DNA of 64,000 nucleotides from Acidimicrobiales bacterium (GCA_039934635.1 JBDTLT010000011.1:5118-69117), one strand, 5' to 3'. Counted from the stretch's first letter, positions 2,924-12,313 are shown. Notes: a model not told the origin generated them from the sequence alone. Translations and numbers: made by a program.

Positions 2924-4027
2924 ATGGATTTCTCACTGAGCGAAGAACAAGAGACCACGCGTTCGCTGGCGCGCCAGATCCTCTCCGATCTCGTCACGCC
3001 CGAGCGCCACAAGGAACTCGAAGCCGACGGCCAATGGTTCGATCGCAAGGCGTGGTCTGCACTGGCCGACGCCGGGCTGCTCGGCATCGCGGCACCCGAA
3101 GCGCATGGCGGCTCGGCACTCGGGTTCCTCGAGGTCGCGCTCGTGCTCGAAGAAGTCGGGCGCACGGTCGCCAAAGTGCCCTATCTCGCATCCGTGGTGA
3201 TGGGCATTTTGCCGATCGCCCGCTTCGGTGACGCGACGGTGCAGGGCCAGTGGCTTCCGCGGCTCGTCTCGGGTGAGGCCATCGCCACGACCGCGCTGGT
3301 CGAAGAGCGCGCATCCGCCCGGTCGCCGGCCACGTCCGCCCGCAAGAAGGGCTCTGCTTGGGTGCTCGACGGCACGAAGACGTGCGTCCCGGCGGGCCTC
3401 GACGCCTCGATCGTGTTGGTGCCCGCGATGACGGGCAACCGCCGGGTCGGCGTGTTCGTCGTCGAGACCGACGGGCCCGGCGTCGAGATCGAGCGCCAGG
3501 ACACCACGACCGGCATTCCCGAAGCGCGGGTCGTGCTCGCGGGCGCCAAGGCGACATTGCTCGGCGACACCGTCGCGGGTGCAGAGATCGTCGATTGGAT
3601 CACGCTGCGGGCGACTGCGGCGCTGGCCGCCACCGCGGTCGGTGTCTGCGAAGCCGCCCTGCGCATCACCGCGGAGTACACGAAGACGCGCGAGCAGTTC
3701 GGCCGCCCGATCGCCACGTTCCAAGCAGTCGGCCAACGCGCCGCCGACGCCTACATCGACACCGAGGCGGTGCGGCTCACCGCGCTGCAGGCCGCGTGGC
3801 GCATCTCCGCCGATCTCCCGGCCGAGGCCGAGGTGGCCATCGCCAAGTTCTGGGCGGCGGACGGCGGGCAGCGCGTCGTGCACGCGGCGCAACACCTGCA
3901 CGGGGGCATGGGTGTCGACCGGGACTATCCCGTTCACCGCTATTTCCTGTGGGCCAAGCATCTCGAACTCTCGCTCGGCGGCGCCACCGAACAGCTTCTG
4001 CGCTTGGGCGACATCTTGGCCGGGTAA
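2924..4027 (+). CDS. Acyl-CoA dehydrogenase, FadE27/FadE28-like partner (beta) subunit
   Basis: MDFSLSEEQ start, REQFGRPIATFQAV, AQHLHGGMG..RDYPVHRYF. Adjacent to the alpha subunit, as in alpha2beta2 steroid ACADs. Confidence 0.9.
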   Translation: MDFSLSEEQETTRSLARQILSDLVTPERHKELEADGQWFDRKAWSALADAGLLGIAAPEAHGGSALGFLEVALVLEEVGRTVAKVPYLASVVMGILPIARFGDATVQGQWLPRLVSGEAIATTALVEERASARSPATSARKKGSAWVLDGTKTCVPAGLDASIVLVPAMTGNRRVGVFVVETDGPGVEIERQDTTTGIPEARVVLAGAKATLLGDTVAGAEIVDWITLRATAALAATAVGVCEAALRITAEYTKTREQFGRPIATFQAVGQRAADAYIDTEAVRLTALQAAWRISADLPAEAEVAIAKFWAADGGQRVVHAAQHLHGGMGVDRDYPVHRYFLWAKHLELSLGGATEQLLRLGDILAG

Positions 4028-4079
4028 CGGCGGAGGGAACCAGAGATACCCCGGCCCTCGTCGGGGAAATCCCGGGGCT

Positions 4080-4106
4080 ATTTGTTACTATGGCCGTAGT
4101 GGAAAT
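4080..4106. promoter_or_regulatory. Palindromic operator-like motif upstream of sufB
   Basis: ATTTGTTACTAT-GGCC-GTAGTGGAAAT; related motifs lie at 5969-5994 and 11818-11843. Confidence 0.6.
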
Positions 4107-4143
4107 TCTGGATTCCCGACGCGACGCAAAAGGAGCCTGACGC

Positions 4144-5541
4144 ATGGCTGACATTGGCGTTGATCTGAGCCGCTACGCCCTCGGGTGGCACGACGAAGTT
4201 GTTTCCGTCTTCGAGCCCAAGCGTGGCTTGAACGCCGACATCGTCAAAGAGATCTCCGGCATCAAGGGCGAGCCCCAGTGGATGCTCGACTTCCGGTTGA
4301 AGTCACTGCGCCAATTCGAAAAGCGGCCCATGCCCAATTGGGGCGGCGATCTCTCCGAGATCTACTTCGACAACATCTTCTATTACATCAAGCCGACCGA
4401 CCATCAGGTCGACGCGTGGGATGCCTTGCCCGAGTCGGTGAAAAAGACCTACGAAAAGCTCGGTATTCCCGAGGCCGAGCGCAAGTACCTCGCGGGGGTC
4501 ACCGCGCAGTACGAAAGCGAAGTCGTCTTCCATCGCAATCGTGAAGATCTCGCCGGTCTCGGTGTGATCTTCTGCGACATGGACACCGCGCTGCGCGAGT
4601 ACCCCGATGTCGTCAAGAAGCACATGGGCAAGATCATCCCGTCGAACGACAACAAGTTCTCTGCGCTCAACTCCGCCGCGTGGAGCGGTGGCTCGTTCAT
4701 CTACGTCCCACCGGGCGTCAAGGTGCCGATGCCGTTGCAGGCCTACTTCCGTATCAACTCGGAGAACATGGGCCAGTTCGAGCGCACGTTGATCATCGCC
4801 GACGAGGGCTCCGAAGTGCATTACATCGAGGGTTGCTCGGCACCGGTCTACACGACCGATTCATTGCATTCGGCGGTCGTCGAGATCTTCGTCGGCAAGT
4901 CGGCTCGAGTGACCTACACGACCATCCAAAACTGGTCCAACAACGTCTTCAACTTGGTCACCAAGCGCGCCCGGGTCGAGGCCGAGGGCCACATGGAGTG
5001 GATCGACGGCAACATCGGTTCGCGTCTCACGATGAAGTACCCCGGTGTCGTCATGGTCGGCCCCAAGGCATCCGGTGAGGTGCTGTCGGTCGCCTATGCG
5101 GGGCAGGGCCAACATCAAGATGCCGGCGCCAAGATGGTGCACGCCGCGCCCGAGACGACCTCCAAAATCGTGTCCAAGTCGATCTCCAAGGACGGCGGGC
5201 GCACCAGCTATCGCGGTCTGGTGCGGGTCGAAGGCGACGCCTACGGCTGCAAGAGTCATGTGCAGTGCGACGCGCTCATTCTCGATGACCATTCCATCTC
5301 CGACACGTTCCCCTACATGGAGATCGGCGCCAAAGATGCGGTCATCGGCCACGAGGCGACGGTGTCCAAGGTCGCGGACGATCAACTCTTCTACTTGATG
5401 AGCCGCGGGCTCTCGCACGAACAAGCCATGGGCATGATCGTCAACGGCTTCATCGAGCCGGTGACGCGCACGCTGCCGATGGAGTACGCGGTCGAGTGGT
5501 CACGCCTCATCGAACTACAGATGGAAGGCAGCGTCGGCTGA
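4144..5541 (+). CDS. sufB: Fe-S cluster assembly protein SufB
   Basis: [62 protein letters not shown]...LQMEGSVG. Confidence 0.98.
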
Positions 5542-5607
5542 GCCTGCGAAGCAGCGTGCCATGCCCCCCGCGTGCCGTGCACGCGGCGGGTTTGGCAAGA
5601 TGGGGTG

Positions 5608-5967
5608 ATGCCCATGCGGGAAGAGTGCAAGTTCTTCGAGAGTCGGACCTATAAGAACGGTGAGACCGTCCGCAAGTGCGACCTCGACCTTGCCCCCGAG
5701 GCGCCGTGGCGTTGTCCGGAGAACTGCGCGGCGTTCACGCCGCGGATGGCCGACGTCAATTGGGCCCACGGCACGCTCGTGACGCCGCCGACGCCCGCCG
5801 AGCCGAAGAGCCTCGAAGAAGATCCCGAATCGGTGGCCCGTCTGCTCGACGAAGCCGAGGACATCCTCAACGAAGCCGGACCGCGCATCGTCGACGAGGT
5901 CAATCGCCAGCAGGGTCGAGACCCGGCTCGGCGAAAGTGGTGGCCGTTCGGTCGCGCCGGGCGCTGA
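5608..5967 (+). CDS. Uncharacterised protein with a C-x16-C-x11-C-x3-C motif, between sufB and sufD
   Basis: ORF fills the sufB-sufD gap with typical codon usage; four Cys in the N-terminal 40 aa, acidic helical middle, basic/aromatic tail (RRKWWPFGR). Confidence 0.8.
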   Translation: MPMREECKFFESRTYKNGETVRKCDLDLAPEAPWRCPENCAAFTPRMADVNWAHGTLVTPPTPAEPKSLEEDPESVARLLDEAEDILNEAGPRIVDEVNRQQGRDPARRKWWPFGRAGR

Positions 5968-5968
5968 T

Positions 5969-5994
5969 ATTTCCCCTACGCGGATAGGATTATT
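5969..5994. promoter_or_regulatory. Degenerate copy of the suf operator-like palindrome directly before sufD
   Basis: ATTTCCCCTAC-GCGG-ATAGGATTATT, ending 3 nt before the sufD GTG. Confidence 0.45.
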
Positions 5995-5997
5995 TCC

Positions 5998-7266
5998 GTG
6001 GTTTCGGTCTTTGCCCCCGATGTAGCGCGCTCGCTCGACGGGCCCCAATGGCTTCGCGAATTTCGCCGTGGCGCGGCCGAGCGGGTTGCAGCGGGTTCCT
6101 TGCCCACCGCCGACGAAGAGGTGTGGCGCTACACCCGCATCGGTGATCTCGCCATCGACCGCTTTCACCTGAGCGACGGCGTCAGCGGTGATGCCCGCAC
6201 CGTTGCCCAGGTGCAGACCGTGCTCGGCGCCTACAGCGACACCGCCGCGGTAGTCGTCGTGCACAACGGACGGCTCGCGCATGTCTCGCAATCGGTCGCT
6301 CGCGGGCTCTACGTAGGGCCGCTGACCGGCTATCGCGGTGGCGAAACGCTGCTCGGCTCGGCGTCGCCCGCCGCCACCGATCTCTTCGCGGAGATGAACA
6401 ACGCATTCGCCGCAGAGCCTCTCGCAGTGGTCGTGGACGCGAACGCCGAGATCGACGCGCCGATTGTGGTCGTGCACTGGAACGACGGCGCCGACGCTGC
6501 GGTGTTTCCCCGTCTCGTCGTGCGGGCGGGCGCCAACAGTCACGCGCTGCTCGTCGAGCACGCGTTGTCGTCGGGCGACACGTTGATGCTGGCTCCCGTG
6601 GTCGAGATGGTGATCGAGCGCGACGCTCGCTTCGGCTATCTCAACGTGCAGCAGTTGGGTGCGAGCACCTGGCAACTGGCATCGCATTCTTCGACCGTCG
6701 ACACCGGTGCCACATTGACCGCGTCAGCCGCGGTTTTCGGTGGCGACTCGGCGCGTCAACGCACCGACTGCCGGCTCATCGGGCGGGGCGCCACCGGCGT
6801 GCTGCAAGCCTTGTATTTCGGCAGCGGTGACCAATTGCTCGACTTCCGCACCTTTCAAGATCACGCGGCGCGCGACACCACGAGCAATCTGTTGTTCAAA
6901 GGCGTCATCGACGATCGGGCCCGCTCGGTCTACACCGGGCTCATCCATGTGCGACCCGATGCCCGGGGGACCAACGCGTTCCAGACGAACCGCAACATCA
7001 AACTCTCTGACGAAGCATGGGCCGAGTCCGTGCCCAACCTCCAGATCGAGAACAACGACGTCAAGTGCAGCCACGCGTCGACCGTCGGCCCCGTCGACGA
7101 AGACCAACGCTTCTATCTGGAGAGTCGCGGTTTGCATCCCTCGCGAGCCGAGCGTTTCATCGTCGCCGGCTTCTTCGACGAGGTGCTCCACGCCCTGCCG
7201 GTCGCCGCCGCTCGTCCGATCGTCGCCGCGGCAATCACCGCCAAACTTGGCGAGGAGTCGAAGTGA
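5998..7266 (+). CDS. sufD: Fe-S cluster assembly protein SufD
   Basis: PTADEEVWRYT, LLFKGVI, AFQTNRNIKLS, SVPNLQIENNDVKCSHASTVG, FYLESRG. Confidence 0.95.
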   Translation: MVSVFAPDVARSLDGPQWLREFRRGAAERVAAGSLPTADEEVWRYTRIGDLAIDRFHLSDGVSGDARTVAQVQTVLGAYSDTAAVVVVHNGRLAHVSQSVARGLYVGPLTGYRGGETLLGSASPAATDLFAEMNNAFAAEPLAVVVDANAEIDAPIVVVHWNDGADAAVFPRLVVRAGANSHALLVEHALSSGDTLMLAPVVEMVIERDARFGYLNVQQLGASTWQLASHSSTVDTGATLTASAAVFGGDSARQRTDCRLIGRGATGVLQALYFGSGDQLLDFRTFQDHAARDTTSNLLFKGVIDDRARSVYTGLIHVRPDARGTNAFQTNRNIKLSDEAWAESVPNLQIENNDVKCSHASTVGPVDEDQRFYLESRGLHPSRAERFIVAGFFDEVLHALPVAAARPIVAAAITAKLGEESK

Positions 7267-7589
7267 AGCAGTTCTTATTGTGCGCCGTTGACGATCTCGC
7301 GCCCGCGACGGCGCGGCGCTTCGACGTAGACGCACACCGCATCGCGCTGGTGCGCATCGACGACGACTTCTACGCCATCGGCGACACGTGTTCGCACGCG
7401 GACTACTCGCTCTCCGAAGGCGAGGTCAACCTCGAAGAACGCACGCTCGAATGCTGGAAGCACGGCAGCCAGTTCAGCGTCGAAGACGGACATCCGGTGT
7501 CGCTACCCGCCACGCGGCCGGTGCCGGTCTACAAAGTCGTCGTCGAAGACGGCTCGGTCTACGTGTCGATCGAGGCCGGCGATGAGTGA
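7263..7589 (+). CDS. Rieske-type ferredoxin (non-heme iron oxygenase ferredoxin subunit)
   Basis: GTG start overlapping the sufD stop; CSH..(x17)..CWKHGSQF Rieske motif. Usual member of actinobacterial suf operons. Confidence 0.92.
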   Translation: MKQFLLCAVDDLAPATARRFDVDAHRIALVRIDDDFYAIGDTCSHADYSLSEGEVNLEERTLECWKHGSQFSVEDGHPVSLPATRPVPVYKVVVEDGSVYVSIEAGDE

Positions 7590-8370
7590 GCTCGTGATCA
7601 GGGGCCTGTACGCGTCGGTGCGGGGCGCGCCCATTCTGCGCGGCGTCGATCTGGTCGTGCGCAGCGGCGAAGTGCACGCGGTGATGGGCCCCAATGGGTC
7701 GGGCAAATCGACGTTGGCGCATGTGCTGATGGGTAAGCCCGGCTACGAGGTCACCGAGGGTTCGATCACGCTCGATGGTGTCGACCTCGTGGGCCTTGCG
7801 CCGTGGCAGCGGGCCCGGGCGGGGCTGTTCCTCGGCCTGCAGTATCCCGTCGAGGTACCCGGCGTGCACGTGGGCGAGGTTCTGGTCGAGGCCCTCGCGG
7901 CGGGCGGGCTTTCGCACGAGGCCGCCGACGAACGCATCGCGTCGGAGGCACCCCGCCTCGGACTCGACGACATGTTCTTCACGCGTGCGCTCAACGTCGA
8001 TCTCTCGGGCGGCGAGAAGAAGCGCGTCGAGACCTTTCAGCTCGCGGTGCTGCGGCCCAAGATCGCGGTGCTCGACGAGCTCGATTCGGGCCTCGATATC
8101 GACGCGTTGCGCCTCGTCAGCCGCCGTGTCGAAGACGCGACCAAAGAGTTCGATCTCGGCGTGCTCGCCATCACGCACTACCAGCGCCTGCTCGAAGTAC
8201 TGCACGCTGATCACGTGCACATCTTCGCCAACGGTCGCATCAAGGCCAGCGGCGGCCCCGAGCTGGCGTCCGAGCTCGAACGCACCGGCTATGCCGCGTG
8301 GGCCGACGCCGAGGCCGCGACCGTCGTCGCCGATCCGTTCGCGGATCCCTTCGCGGATCCCTTCGCCTGA
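7582..8370 (+). CDS. sufC: Fe-S cluster assembly ATPase SufC (copy 1), C-terminal (ADPF)3 tail
   Basis: Walker A GPNGSGKST, QYPVEVPG, LSGGEKKR signature, Walker B DELDSGLDID, ITHYQR. Confidence 0.95.
   Translation: MSELVIRGLYASVRGAPILRGVDLVVRSGEVHAVMGPNGSGKSTLAHVLMGKPGYEVTEGSITLDGVDLVGLAPWQRARAGLFLGLQYPVEVPGVHVGEVLVEALAAGGLSHEAADERIASEAPRLGLDDMFFTRALNVDLSGGEKKRVETFQLAVLRPKIAVLDELDSGLDIDALRLVSRRVEDATKEFDLGVLAITHYQRLLEVLHADHVHIFANGRIKASGGPELASELERTGYAAWADAEAATVVADPFADPFADPFA
8329..8364 (+). repeat. 12-nt tandem repeat x3 encoding (ADPF)3 at the SufC1 C-terminus
   Basis: gccgatccgttc gcggatcccttc gcggatcccttc, followed by gcc tga. Confidence 0.9.
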
Positions 8371-8433
8371 TTCGAACGCGTCGCCGCGGCTCGCCGTCTG
8401 GACGTACCGCGAACGTGTCGTAGGCTCGAAACC

Positions 8434-8733
8434 ATGCCGGTAGATCGCCGTCCCCTGTCCTCCGCCGAGGTCGCCCACCTCGTCGCGCCACTCGACGGAT
8501 GGGAGCTCGACGGCGACACGTTGCGGCGTCAGCTGGTCTTCGACTCGTTCGTGCAGGCCTTCGGCTTCATGGCCCAGGTGGCCCTCATCGCCGAGCGCCT
8601 CGACCATCACCCGAACTGGTCCAACGTGTACAACCGCGTCGACATCGCCGTCACGACGCACGATGCGGGCGGCTTGACCGCGCTCGACTTCGAGTTCGTG
8701 CGCCGGGTCGACGCGGTCTTGTCGCGAGCCTGA
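8434..8733 (+). CDS. phhB: Pterin-4-alpha-carbinolamine dehydratase
   Basis: F..AFGFM..VALIAERLDHHPNWSNVYNRV.I..TTHDAGGLT.LDF. Confidence 0.92.
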   Translation: MPVDRRPLSSAEVAHLVAPLDGWELDGDTLRRQLVFDSFVQAFGFMAQVALIAERLDHHPNWSNVYNRVDIAVTTHDAGGLTALDFEFVRRVDAVLSRA

Positions 8734-8734
8734 C

Positions 8735-9256
8735 ATGCGCCACGAAATCGAAGGCAGCATCGTCCGTCTGCGCGCGATGGAACTCGCCGATGTCCAGTGG
8801 TACGACAACTTGCCGATCACGAGTGAGTACGACGACTTTGGCCAGCAGCCGCCGTACAACTCAGTCGATCGCTGGCGCGCCGACAAGCTCGTCACCGCCG
8901 ACAACGGGTTGCTACTGGTCGAACAGATCGCGTCGCGCGAGCGACTGGGTTCTGTCGGGTGGCGCACCGTCACGTGGGGGCCGTCGTGGCTGTCCCGTTG
9001 TATAGAGATCGGCATCTCGCTCATTCCGAGTGCGCGGGGCCGCGGCCTCGGTACCGAGGCGCAGCGGTTACTCGCTCGATTTCTCTTCGCCGAGACCAAT
9101 GTGCAACGAATCCAGGCGGTCACCGACGTGACCAACCTTTCCGAGCAGCGTGCGCTCGAAAAAGCGGGCTTCATCGCCGAAGGAGTGCTGCGCAGCGCGC
9201 AACACCGGCGCGGCGACTATCACGACTTGGTGATCTACGCAGTAGTACGCGAATAG
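8735..9256 (+). CDS. GNAT N-acetyltransferase, RimJ/RimL family
   Basis: EIGISL..SARGRGLGTEA, RIQAVTDVTN..EQRALEKAGF..EGVLR. Confidence 0.88.
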   Translation: MRHEIEGSIVRLRAMELADVQWYDNLPITSEYDDFGQQPPYNSVDRWRADKLVTADNGLLLVEQIASRERLGSVGWRTVTWGPSWLSRCIEIGISLIPSARGRGLGTEAQRLLARFLFAETNVQRIQAVTDVTNLSEQRALEKAGFIAEGVLRSAQHRRGDYHDLVIYAVVRE

Positions 9257-9280
9257 TGCGTGCTAGTGGGGTGGTCTAAC

Positions 9281-9321
9281 CGCGGCGGCAGCCGCCCAGC
9301 GTTGCGGCGCCGCCGCACCAG
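9281..9321. repeat. Degenerate copy of the REP-like double-hairpin repeat (between convergent GNAT and sufU)
   Basis: cgcggcggcagccgcccagcgttgcggcgccgccgcaccag resembles 62357-62397 and keeps both GCGGC..GCCGC stems. Confidence 0.65.
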
Positions 9322-9332
9322 AACGACCGCCG

Positions 9333-9803
9333 CTAGGCGGTCGCGTCGTCGAGGCCGATGGCGAGGGTGTTCCAGGCCAACGTCGCACACTTGATGCGCG
9401 ATGCGAACTTGACCACGCCGCGGAGCGCTTCGAGGTCACCGAGCTTGATCTCGGCACCGTTGTCGTCGGTCTCGCTCGTCGTGCCGTCGAGCTCGTTTTC
9501 GTGGATCGACATCATCCCTTTGAAGGCACGCGTGGTCGAGCGCGCCTCGTTGACGCTCTTGCCCTTGACCGCGACGCTCATCATCGAGGCCGACGCCTTG
9601 CTGATCGAGCAGCCCTGACCGGTGATGCGCACGTCTCTGACACGGCCGTCGGCGACGTCGACGTAGACCGCCACCTCGTCACCGCACAGCGGGTTGAACC
9701 CCTCCGCACGATGCGCGGGCGGACACTCGAGGGTGCCGTTGTTACGGGGATTGCGGTAGTGATCGAGGATGATCTCGCGGTAGAGATCTTCGAGCCCAGG
9801 CAT
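9333..9803 (-). CDS. sufU: SufU (SUF system NifU-like scaffold / Zn sulfurtransferase)
   Basis: LYREIILDHYRNPRN, NPLCGDE, GQGCSISKASAS, F.SRIKCATLAW; ATG at 9803. Confidence 0.96.
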   Translation of the reverse strand: MPGLEDLYREIILDHYRNPRNNGTLECPPAHRAEGFNPLCGDEVAVYVDVADGRVRDVRITGQGCSISKASASMMSVAVKGKSVNEARSTTRAFKGMMSIHENELDGTTSETDDNGAEIKLGDLEALRGVVKFASRIKCATLAWNTLAIGLDDATA

Positions 9804-9819
9804 TTGTGACCTCGCGACG

Positions 9820-11049
9820 TCAGATGGCAAAGAATTGGCCGGCGGCCTCGAGCGCATCGGCGAGCCGATCGACATCGGACTCGTCGTTGTACACGTAGAA
9901 CGAAGCGCGGGCGGTTGCGGTGATACCGAGCTTGCGCATGAGTGGCTTTGCGCAGTGATGGCCCGCACGTACACAGACACCGTATTGATCGAGCACTTGG
10001 CTGATGTCGTGCGCGTGGATGTCTTTGTAGGTGAAGGAGAACACGGCACCGCGCTGCGCCGGCTCGGACGGGCCGTAGATGTGCAAGTCGTCGCCGAAGC
10101 GTTCGGTCAGTGTGCGCATGGTGTAAGCGGCGAGGGTGACTTCGTGCTCGCGCACCGCGTCCATGCCGAGGCCGCGGAGGTAGTCGACCGCCGCGCCCAG
10201 CCCGATGATCTCCGCGATGGGGGGAGTGCCCGCTTCGAATTTCCACGGCACGTCGTTGGTGGTGAATCCGTCGAAGCGCACGTCTCGGATCATTTCGCCG
10301 CCGCCCAAGAACGGCGGCATGGCGTCGAGGATCTCTTGGCGACCCCAGAGCACGCCGATGCCCGTCGGGCCGCACATCTTGTGTCCGCTGAACGCCAACA
10401 GGTCGGCGCCGAGTGCGTGCACATCGGTGGCGAGGTGGGGCACGTACTGGCAGGCGTCGATGCACACGGTGGCACCCGCGGCGTGCGCGGCGTCGGCGAT
10501 GCGGCGCATCGGAGTGAGCGTGCCGAGGACGTTGGACATCGCAGTGATCGACACGAGCTTGGCGCCGTCGAGGTAGCGATCGAGCTCGTCGACGCACAAC
10601 ATGCCGTCGTCCCGAATCGGTAGCCACCGCAGCTCGATGCCGCGCTCGGCGGCGAGCATGTGCCACGGCACGATGTTGGCGTGGTGCTCCATCTCGGTGA
10701 GCACGACGGCGTCGCCCTCTTTGAGGTTGGCCCGGCCCCAGGAATGCGCCACGAGGTTGAGCGACTCGGTGGCGTTCTTGGTGAAGACGACCTCGTTGTA
10801 GTCGCCACCGATGAACCCGGCGACCGCGCGGCGCGCGCCTTCCATCTGGTTGGTGGCTTCTTCGGCGATGCGATACACACCGCGGTGCACGTTGGCGTTG
10901 ATCGTCTCGTAGTAGGTCGTCATCGCGTCGATCACGACCCGCGGCTTTTGCGACGTCGCGGCGGAGTCGACGTAGACGATGGGGTGCCCGTCGACCTTTT
11001 GGTCGAGCAGAGGGAAGTCCTTCTTGATGCGCTCAGTGTCGAGTGCCAT
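9820..11049 (-). CDS. sufS: Cysteine desulfurase SufS
   Basis: YVDSAATSQKP, ANVHRGVY, MEHHANIVPW, FSGHKMCGPTGIG (PLP Lys), VRAGHHCA (catalytic Cys). ATG at 11049 overlaps the sufC2 stop. Confidence 0.97.
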   Translation of the reverse strand: MALDTERIKKDFPLLDQKVDGHPIVYVDSAATSQKPRVVIDAMTTYYETINANVHRGVYRIAEEATNQMEGARRAVAGFIGGDYNEVVFTKNATESLNLVAHSWGRANLKEGDAVVLTEMEHHANIVPWHMLAAERGIELRWLPIRDDGMLCVDELDRYLDGAKLVSITAMSNVLGTLTPMRRIADAAHAAGATVCIDACQYVPHLATDVHALGADLLAFSGHKMCGPTGIGVLWGRQEILDAMPPFLGGGEMIRDVRFDGFTTNDVPWKFEAGTPPIAEIIGLGAAVDYLRGLGMDAVREHEVTLAAYTMRTLTERFGDDLHIYGPSEPAQRGAVFSFTYKDIHAHDISQVLDQYGVCVRAGHHCAKPLMRKLGITATARASFYVYNDESDVDRLADALEAAGQFFAI

Positions 11050-11789
11050 CACCGCCAGCTTTCGTAGCCGTCTCTCTCGAGCCGCTCTACGAGCTCGAGG
11101 CCGCCGGTAGCGACGATGCGGCCGTCGATCATGATGTGAACGACATCGGGTACCAGCTCTTCGAGCAAGCGCTGATAGTGCGTGATCGCGAGCACGCCCA
11201 TCGAGGGGCGGTCGCGGTGAACTTCGTTGACGCCTTGGGCGACGATGCGCAGCGCGTCGATATCGAGACCCGAGTCGGTCTCGTCGAGGATCGCCAACTC
11301 GGGCTCGAGGATGGCGAGTTGCAGGACCTCGTTGCGTTTCTTCTCGCCACCGGAGAAGCCCTCGTTGAGGTAGCGATCGGCGAAGGACGAATCCATGCCG
11401 AGGCGTTGCATCCACTCCATGATCGACAGCCGCAACTCGAGCACCGAGAGATCGAGGCCCTTGCGGGCGGACAGCGCCTGGCGCAAGAAGTTGATGACCG
11501 AGACGCCGGCGATCTCTTGCGGGTACTGGAAAGCGAGGAACATGCCGGATTTGCCACGCACGTCGGCCGGCCAACTGGAGATGTCGTCGCCCTTGAAGAG
11601 GATCGAGCCTTCGGTCATCGCGTACTCGGGGTTGCCGAGTAGCACATTGGCCAGCGTCGACTTGCCCGAGCCGTTGGGACCCAAAAGCGCGTGGATCTCG
11701 CCGGGGGCGATCGTCAGGTCGACGCCCCGCAGGATCGGGGTGGAACCAGCGCCGGCATGCAGGTTGCGCACCTCGAAGAGCGGGGTCAT
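11049..11789 (-). CDS. sufC: Fe-S cluster assembly ATPase SufC (copy 2)
   Basis: GPNGSGKST, FLAFQYPQEI, RYLNEGFSGGEKKRNE, LDETDSGLDIDAL, ITHYQRLL. Start MTPLF at 11789 with TAGACT 7 nt upstream (leaderless-type). Confidence 0.96.
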   Translation of the reverse strand: MTPLFEVRNLHAGAGSTPILRGVDLTIAPGEIHALLGPNGSGKSTLANVLLGNPEYAMTEGSILFKGDDISSWPADVRGKSGMFLAFQYPQEIAGVSVINFLRQALSARKGLDLSVLELRLSIMEWMQRLGMDSSFADRYLNEGFSGGEKKRNEVLQLAILEPELAILDETDSGLDIDALRIVAQGVNEVHRDRPSMGVLAITHYQRLLEELVPDVVHIMIDGRIVATGGLELVERLERDGYESWR

Positions 11790-11817
11790 GGCCCGAAGTC
11801 TAGGCAAATCCGAGGGC

Positions 11818-11843
11818 ATTTGCACTATGCCGGTAGTGGTAAT
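11818..11843. promoter_or_regulatory. Best copy of the suf operator-like palindrome, over the predicted -35 of sufC2-sufS-sufU
   Basis: ATTTGCACTAT-GCCG-GTAGTGGTAAT; the minus-strand -10 TAGACT is at 11797-11802. Confidence 0.65.
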
Positions 11844-11872
11844 TGCGGTGTCGAGCGGGCGCGTCGCCGGCC

Positions 11873-12313
11873 TCAAACCGAGGCGAGCAGGTCTTGCTTC
11901 CACGCCCGGAATCGCTCGTGGTGACTGCCGCTAGGCCCCTCACCTTCGGCGGATCCGTCGGCATGCAGACGGAACAAGAACTGGCGCGTGAGGTCCTCGC
12001 GGTCCACCGCGAAATAGCGGGCGTCGGCCTCGACTGCAGGCCCAGCGCGCCAGAGCAACCAGCGGCCGATGCGGCGCTTGTACATCGCGACTTGGAACTG
12101 CGGGTCGCTGTGGCCGAGGTCGTCGCCCAATGTGAGTAGGGCGGCGGGCGCTTCGATCCATGCCGTCGCGGGGATGTTGCGGTCGCGAGTGGGGGTGTCG
12201 GGGAGGTCGGCCGTATGCCGCAACGTGTTGTCGATGGGGCGTTCGTCGTAGCGCAAGGCTCGTTCCACCCGGCCAGTCTGCCGCGCGATGAGTGGAGTAC
12301 ATCTCGGCGTCAT
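11873..12313 (-). CDS. Hypothetical protein
   Basis: Open frame filling the gap, globular-looking C-terminus (YKRRIGRWLLWRAGP...HERFRAWKQDL). Start uncertain. Confidence 0.6.
   Translation of the reverse strand: MTPRCTPLIARQTGRVERALRYDERPIDNTLRHTADLPDTPTRDRNIPATAWIEAPAALLTLGDDLGHSDPQFQVAMYKRRIGRWLLWRAGPAVEADARYFAVDREDLTRQFLFRLHADGSAEGEGPSGSHHERFRAWKQDLLASV

Follow-up and report, generated by a model that had tools for sequence, protein, structure and literature searches.

The genes of the SUF system of iron-sulphur (Fe-S) cluster assembly in an Acidimicrobiales bacterium were analysed in a 64-kb stretch of DNA (hereafter, the window), which lies on contig C11 of a metagenome bin of 6.56 Mb and 65.6% G+C. 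Three look-alike 26-bp palindromes were verified in the window, one ahead of each suf unit (sufB, sufD-Rieske-sufC1 and sufC2-sufS-sufU; Table 1). Judged from sequence comparisons, this palindrome is probably an operator bound by a dimeric SufR-like COG2345 repressor, the 257-aa helix-turn-helix (HTH) protein P1, which would coordinate the suf units. P1 is encoded outside the window, on contig C20, and was favoured as the binder because a fourth copy of the palindrome is found at its own promoter and because P1 and the motif have matching distributions across genomes.

Occurrence and conservation of the palindrome

The consensus of the 26-bp palindrome is ATTTCYCCTAY-N4-RTAGKRGAAAT, while the six half-sites of the three window copies, read towards the centre, give ATTTSCACTAY. 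Most sites carry ATTT...AAAT arms, with few departures (for example, the sufD copy, whose right arm is TATT), and on the strand of sufC2 the third copy reads ATTACCACTAC-CGGC-ATAGTGCAAAT. Searching the window with the pattern ATTN4CTAYN4RTAGN4AAT, at most one mismatch being allowed, gave three matches, all at the three copies, against 0.00 in 100 dinucleotide-preserving shuffles. The three sequences quoted in a preliminary description of the window were all present, although the coordinates given there for the sufB copy (4080-4106) span 27 nt and were brought into register as listed in Table 1.

The whole genome was scanned with two matrices, the first built from the six half-sites of the window copies and the second from the sites of relatives only, those of this genome being excluded. 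The first matrix returned a fourth site on which it had not been trained (C20:7451-7476, ATTTCTCCTATCCCGATAGGTAGAAT) at 25.4 bits, the runner-up scoring 15.0 bits. With the relatives-only matrix exactly four sites were found in the 6.56-Mb assembly, at 30.6-35.3 bits (35.2 bits for the site on contig C20), followed by a next match at 11.3 bits; the best match in the reversed genome, used as a control, scored 18.2 bits. The fourth site is placed within the 70-bp spacer separating apbC/mrp (minus strand), which encodes an Fe-S carrier, from the P1 gene, 7 nt ahead of the P1 start codon. A genome-wide scan had been proposed in the preliminary description as a check on its claim of a shared operator that unites the separate suf units in a single regulon, and the claim is supported by this restriction together with the conservation of the sites described below. 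Its statement that the window holds no regulator gene was likewise confirmed, the best candidate being P1 on contig C20.

Among the relatives, the site was found before sufB in 26 of 29 (pattern count and alignment), where it reads (A/G)TTGTTACTAT-N4-RTAGGAGAAAT, and before sufC2 in 28 of 30. The site before sufD was more restricted, with 9 of 29 by pattern count (the bacterium's own family, G039, G021 and G019) and near-matches in G015, G009 and G023; further sites are located near the gene for a 4-Cys protein (see below) in G009 and G023. Before P1 the site is present in most of the 41 genomes of the order that were compared, and at 52 of 81 P1 loci in a wider set. Altogether, the 41 genomes gave 102 pattern matches (1-5 sites per genome) as opposed to 7 matches of reversed-pattern controls, all 7 in two genomes (G024 and G028), and the matches that were compared with gene coordinates all fell at four gene classes, namely sufB, sufD, sufC2 and P1. 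The motif is thus conserved upstream of orthologous suf genes and exceeds the control, which is the finding on which the preliminary description had made its proposal depend. Over more than 100 sites the CTAY/RTAG core is nearly invariant and the 4-nt centre varies freely, and the alignment of these sites suggests base-specific reading of the core. Of 61 genomes sampled evenly from the phylum, only the four from the Acidimicrobiia, with 4 sites each, had more matches to the pattern than to the control, and these four, and no others, also had a P1 homologue at E <= 1e-40; two of the four belong to another order, and their sufB sites were read directly.

Two variant arrangements were seen at the regulator gene. 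In the Acidimicrobiales, 12 of the 29 P1 loci that have no operator (L124-L130, L138, L139, L144, L150 and L153) carry CGTAAACTTACCGG in its place, and in two genomes of a sister order (L203/L204; G057 and G087) the palindrome AAACTATAGTTT stands upstream of P1, with a normal operator at sufB. These sequences may represent a variant or an additional control of the regulator gene.

Candidate regulator P1 and the alternatives

The P1 gene is transcribed divergently from apbC/mrp, and a gene for an iscS/nifS-like cysteine desulfurase starts 16 nt past its stop codon. It is unlinked to suf (contig C20 relative to contig C11), a layout found across the order. The protein has Pfam HTH_20 and MetOD1 domains and a weak match to TIGR02702 (SufR), the score of 23 bits lying far below the equivalog cut-off of 178.8. 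Across 13 P1 orthologues, the motifs NVARHHLDKL and GAGRPSK (G95-R96-P97) and the putative ligand set C205-x12-C218-x2-D221-x29-C251 are all invariant. As a canonical reference we used a SufR from a 9.2-Mb Streptomyces-like genome, where its gene immediately precedes sufB; P1 shares ~22% identity with this SufR by BLASTP (E 1e-5 to 1e-7), a value that refers to this protein and not to SufR of Mycobacterium tuberculosis. When a profile of the 13 orthologues was compared with the suf-linked SufR by hhalign, 195 columns were aligned (probability 96.7%, E 4.2e-10); ARH of P1 was paired with RRH, AGRP with RGRP of the AT-hook (RGRPAK), and C205, C218, D221 and C251 column for column with C, C, E and C.

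P1 thus combines the traits by which COG2345 is recognised (the basic motif of the winged HTH, the GRP AT-hook, the ligand spacing and full-length homology to SufR), while for SufR sensu stricto it falls short of the TIGR02702 cut-off, is not the best match to canonical SufR and is not adjacent to suf. On these sequence grounds, P1 is classed among the SufR-like (COG2345) proteins, as a divergent member, and not as an orthologue of canonical SufR. A homologue search returned generic names only (for example, 'predicted ArsR family transcriptional regulator'), and no SufR structure was matched by sequence searches of the PDB with P1, the profile of its orthologues or canonical SufR.

The operator was found in 37 of the 41 relatives. 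No P1 orthologue is present in G024, G029, G032 and G033, which are 94-96% complete, and the same genomes are without the operator at sufB or sufC2; conversely, every P1-bearing genome has the operator (G027 only at two mismatches), and the association of P1 and operator is significant (Fisher p = 1.5e-4). In three of the P1-less genomes (G024, G032 and G033), no regulator gene was found within 1.5 kb upstream of sufB.

Several points weigh against P1 as the binder. A site is present and P1 was not detected in G006 (71% complete) and G040, and at 29 of the 81 P1 loci the P1 promoter has no operator, so that autoregulation would be common but not obligatory and the argument drawn from it is weaker. 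The identity of only ~22% to canonical SufR goes together with 23 bits on TIGR02702, on which canonical SufR and P4, a paralogue discussed below, reach 86-89 bits. In P1, Asp takes the place of Glu195 of M. tuberculosis SufR, a protein whose E195D mutant loses the cluster. In addition, the assembly is a metagenome bin with an estimated contamination of 4.7%, in which P1 and suf are on different contigs, and we infer the recognition of the operator by P1, the cluster in P1 and the direction of control.

The co-occurrence would also fit another transcription factor with the same phyletic distribution, P1 then being a co-regulated Fe-S gene that acts elsewhere; a site at the P1 promoter suits a target gene of the regulon no less than its regulator, and the 29 site-less loci agree with this. 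We consider it unlikely, P1 being the sole DNA-binding protein found linked to a site and belonging to a family with known suf regulators that act on A/T-flanked palindromes of this span, with no other regulator gene beside any site in this genome. Three COG2345 paralogues are present in the genome besides P1, and one of them, P4, is the closest to suf-linked actinobacterial SufR (31-32% identity, E ~1e-20), with an RGRP AT-hook, a C-x12-C-x2-E ligand pattern and 89 bits on TIGR02702, relative to 86 for the genuine suf-linked SufR. That this canonical-type paralogue is the binder and P1 merely a member of the regulon is nevertheless very unlikely, given that P4 orthologues occur in only 12 of the 41 relatives (5 of 29 high-quality genomes), that P4 is missing from the near-complete G012, G019, G034 and G038, which have 3-4 operators (no association by Fisher test, p = 0.30), and that no operator is found near P4, nothing above 11.3 bits lying outside the four suf/P1 sites.

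The preliminary description had suggested a regulator of the Rrf2 family (IscR-like), of which the genome holds three genes. IscR controls suf in proteobacteria, and IscR sites, too, are long A/T-flanked palindromes. The distribution of Rrf2 genes is at odds with that of the motif, since 39 of the 41 genomes have them, the motif-less G024, G029 and G032 among these, whereas G028 carries the motif ahead of sufB and sufC2 and no Rrf2 gene; this comparison is, however, a weak one, made at the family level with paralogues pooled. With no motif near any of the three Rrf2 genes either, binding by one of them appears highly improbable. We give still less credence, to the point of regarding it as barely plausible, to the notion that no protein operator is involved and that the element is simply part of a promoter (-35/-10) or forms a hairpin in the RNA of the 5' untranslated region (UTR). 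Half-sites do contain the -10-like hexamers TACTAT, TAGAAT and TAGGAT, and the palindrome could fold as RNA, but its position relative to the -10 varies (over it at P1, sufD and sufB; ~15 nt upstream at sufC2 in the bacterium's own family), and at the putatively leaderless promoters, where the start codon would itself be the transcriptional start site (TSS), it stands ahead of this codon and would not be transcribed. Both arms are moreover conserved in sequence around a free centre, no compensatory changes were seen, and the element disappears together with one regulator gene, that of P1.

Putative promoters, proposed mechanism and gene map

The palindromes overlap putative promoter elements (Table 1). 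At sufB, the predicted extended -10 is covered by the operator and would be followed by a 5' UTR of ~45 nt with AAGGAG; in alignments, almost all relatives retain TTGTTACTAT at this left half-site, a degree of conservation beyond that required by the palindrome alone. The GTG start of sufD, at 5998, is 7 nt past the putative -10 TAGGAT, over which the operator lies, and has no Shine-Dalgarno sequence; its position is the same in relatives, and the internal promoter that had been proposed ahead of sufD is supported as a prediction. For sufC2, the hexamer TAGACT at 11802-11797 (minus strand) was found as previously described, 7 nt ahead of the ATG, with the start codon corrected from 11792 to 11789-11787. 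The operator ends 15 nt upstream of this putative -10 and, as had been claimed, would thereby cover the -35 position of a leaderless promoter. A -10-like hexamer 6-8 nt ahead of the sufC2 start is kept in relatives. In most other families the operator abuts the -10, whereas in the bacterium's own family an insertion of ~17 nt separates the two (11797-11843), as a result of which the operator has been shifted from over the -10 to over the -35 position.

The hexamers that precede the P1, sufC2 and sufD starts by 6-7 nt correspond to the signature of leaderless actinobacterial transcripts known from mycobacterial TSS maps. Half-sites that would double as -10 elements deviate from the ideal half-site in a conserved manner, which fits a compromise of promoter and operator function. 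A scan of positions 3900-12000 for the sigma-70 consensus gave 0 sites, as expected for actinobacterial promoters without a -35. The sequence was found in DNA metagenome runs from rhizosphere, soil and sediment, and among the runs searched there were no RNA runs with it.

These arrangements fit repression by occlusion of RNA polymerase at mostly leaderless promoters, as read from the sequence, and a mechanism may be outlined as follows. P1 in its holo-form ([4Fe-4S]) would bind the four operators, at sufB, sufD-Rieske-sufC1, sufC2-sufS-sufU and P1/apbC. By analogy with M. tuberculosis SufR, its AT-hooks would read the outer ATTT/AAAT arms in the minor groove, while the HTH helices would read the inner CTAY-N4-RTAG core. 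Since the operators lie over the -10 (sufB, sufD and P1) or the -35 position (sufC2), bound P1 would block RNA polymerase there. At low Fe-S supply, or upon damage to the cluster by oxidants, nitric oxide (NO) or iron limitation, P1 would leave the DNA, and its release would derepress apbC, P1 and every suf unit, and probably iscS, at the same time.

Table 1. Positions of the operators, suf genes, putative promoter elements and candidate regulators. Coordinates refer to the window unless a contig of the same genome (G000:C20 or G000:C431) is given; bit scores of operators are from the relatives-only matrix.
Feature	Position	Strand	Remarks
O-sufB operator	4081-4106	no strand	TTTGTTACTAT-GGCC-GTAGTGGAAAT; sufB ATG 37 nt downstream; 34.7 bits
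Putative extended -10 of sufB promoter (TGT-TACTAT)	4083-4091	+	inside left half-site; predicted
sufB	4144-5541	+	Pfam SUFBD_core, 289 bits
119-aa 4-Cys protein	5608-5967	+	no Pfam/NCBIfam family
O-sufD operator	5969-5994	no strand	ATTTCCCCTAC-GCGG-ATAGGATTATT; 30.6 bits
Putative -10 (TAGGAT) of internal leaderless sufD promoter	5985-5990	+	inside right half-site; predicted
sufD	5998-7266	+	Pfam
Rieske [2Fe-2S] protein	7263-7589	+	Pfam
sufC1	7582-8370	+	Pfam
Pterin-4a-carbinolamine dehydratase	8434-8733	+	
GNAT acetyltransferase	8735-9256	+	
sufU	9830-9333	-	Pfam NifU_N
sufS	11058-9820	-	Pfam Aminotran_5
sufC2	11789-11049	-	Pfam ABC_tran
Putative -10 (TAGACT) of leaderless sufC2 promoter	11797-11802	-	7 nt ahead of ATG; predicted
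O-sufC2 operator	11818-11843	no strand	plus-strand reading ATTTGCACTAT-GCCG-GTAGTGGTAAT; 35.3 bits
Putative P1 promoter (TAGAAT)			in right half-site, GTG start 6 nt on; operator over -10
P1, 257-aa HTH protein	G000:C20:7483-8256		divergent from apbC/mrp; outside window, other contig than suf
P4, COG2345 paralogue	G000:C431:121-789	-	outside window, unlinked to suf

The 4-Cys protein encoded between sufB and sufD has its four Cys within the first 40 residues, and homologues were found in 39 of the 41 Acidimicrobiales genomes, at 44-93% identity. Its gene adjoins sufB in the genomes compared by coordinates (for example, G039, G012 and G030), and an accessory role in the SUF system, as yet uncharacterised, is possible. 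As a DNA binder it was rejected, having no recognisable DNA-binding domain and being present in the motif-less G024, G032 and G033. The genes for pterin-4a-carbinolamine dehydratase and the GNAT acetyltransferase that follow sufC1 (8434-9256, plus strand) are probably co-transcribed with sufD-Rieske-sufC1. A 566-aa open reading frame at 7474-9174 (minus strand) was judged to be spurious; it has no family match and runs antisense to the Rieske, sufC1, pterin-4a-carbinolamine dehydratase and GNAT genes, a high-G+C artefact that a gene caller might miscall. Terminator-like G+C-rich hairpins at 4061-4075 and 5945-5963 (plus strand) end right at O-sufB and O-sufD, the ATTT arm of the operator forming the T-run, and shuffles yielded no fewer hairpins of this kind than the region itself. 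On contig C20, genes for a DUF3107 protein and ArsA/BagA-like ATPases are located downstream of apbC (locus L001, 5012-6235, minus strand; BagA-like 5012-5953), and this stretch constitutes an actinobacterial gene neighbourhood beside the P1-apbC control region.

Comparison with known regulators and significance

Control of suf promoters by an Fe-S-sensing COG2345 repressor that acts on an A/T-flanked palindrome is an already known kind of control. The operator of M. tuberculosis SufR, as defined by DNase footprinting, is ATTTTGTCACACT-N5-TGTGAAAAT (10.1101/2020.08.10.245365), and the AT-hook mechanism of such proteins was first described structurally in a preprint of December 2025 (10.64898/2025.12.26.696629). 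According to the same work, M. tuberculosis SufR cannot bind without the A/T tracts, whereas mutations in the core are tolerated; in this protein the basic motif of helix alpha3 is RRH, and the cluster is ligated by C179, C192, E195 and C220; E195D abolishes the cluster, although Asp is listed among the family residues at the Glu195 position, and the RRH motif varies in the family (10.64898/2025.12.26.696629).

Like M. tuberculosis SufR (Rv1460), P1 belongs to COG2345 and has, by sequence, a winged HTH, a GRP AT-hook and a Cys-rich sensor domain, and the role proposed for it is that of the former, an autoregulated suf repressor. The operators are also alike, both being promoter-overlapping palindromes of 26-27 bp in which the centres of the outer A/T tracts are ~22 bp apart. 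The operator described here thus has a SufR-type architecture, that is, a palindrome with A/T tracts of at least 4 bp on both sides that overlaps the inferred promoters of Fe-S assembly genes. P1 differs in having AGRP for RGRP, ARH for RRH and Asp for Glu195, and in the location of its gene between apbC and iscS, whereas sufR is the first gene of sufRBDCSUT in M. tuberculosis. Three to four operators serve the split suf genes here, as compared with one in M. tuberculosis, and the near-invariant CTAY-N4-RTAG core contrasts with the published, mutation-tolerant core ACACT-N5-TGTGA.

The SufR proteins of cyanobacteria (Synechocystis sll0088; TIGR02702) and Streptomyces avermitilis are likewise [4Fe-4S] repressors of suf that recognise A/T-flanked palindromes (10.64898/2025.12.26.696629). 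Their genes are adjacent to suf, unlike that of P1. The published operator cores of these proteins are CAAC-N6-GTTG, from which the core found here differs. ArnR of Corynebacterium glutamicum is a COG2345 paralogue with the same fold, AT-hook and ligands and with A/T-flanked sites of ~30 bp (10.64898/2025.12.26.696629); it represses narKGHJI and hmp (nitrate respiration and NO detoxification), whereas the sites attributed to P1 are found only at Fe-S assembly genes. IscR also senses Fe-S and has long palindromic sites at proteobacterial suf/isc promoters, but it is of a family unrelated to P1, and Rrf2 genes do not co-vary with the motif.

A literature search returned no paper naming SufR together with Acidimicrobi*, and the combination of this operator with a divergent regulator was not found described there. 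No new kind of regulation is revealed; what is added here is the P1 clade as the likely binder, the canonical-type paralogue and Rrf2 being set aside by their distribution across genomes. We are evenly divided on whether a separate COG2345 lineage, that of P1, replaced the canonical operon-linked SufR in the Acidimicrobiia, with a class-specific operator, an Asp ligand and P4 left to another target.

With P1 as the probable binder, a large and mostly uncultured actinobacterial class would have a clean regulon for Fe-S assembly, with one operator, a named repressor candidate and 3-4 promoters in each genome, which would account for the coordination of split suf genes with two sufC paralogues. 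The P1 clade, at present annotated generically as 'ArsR family' or 'helix-turn-helix', could thereby gain a functional annotation. Its strict operator core and Asp ligand would present a contrasting case to the mechanism of M. tuberculosis SufR, and, if the assignment is true, P1 would be a natural experiment on the tuning of Fe-S sensing by a carboxylate ligand.

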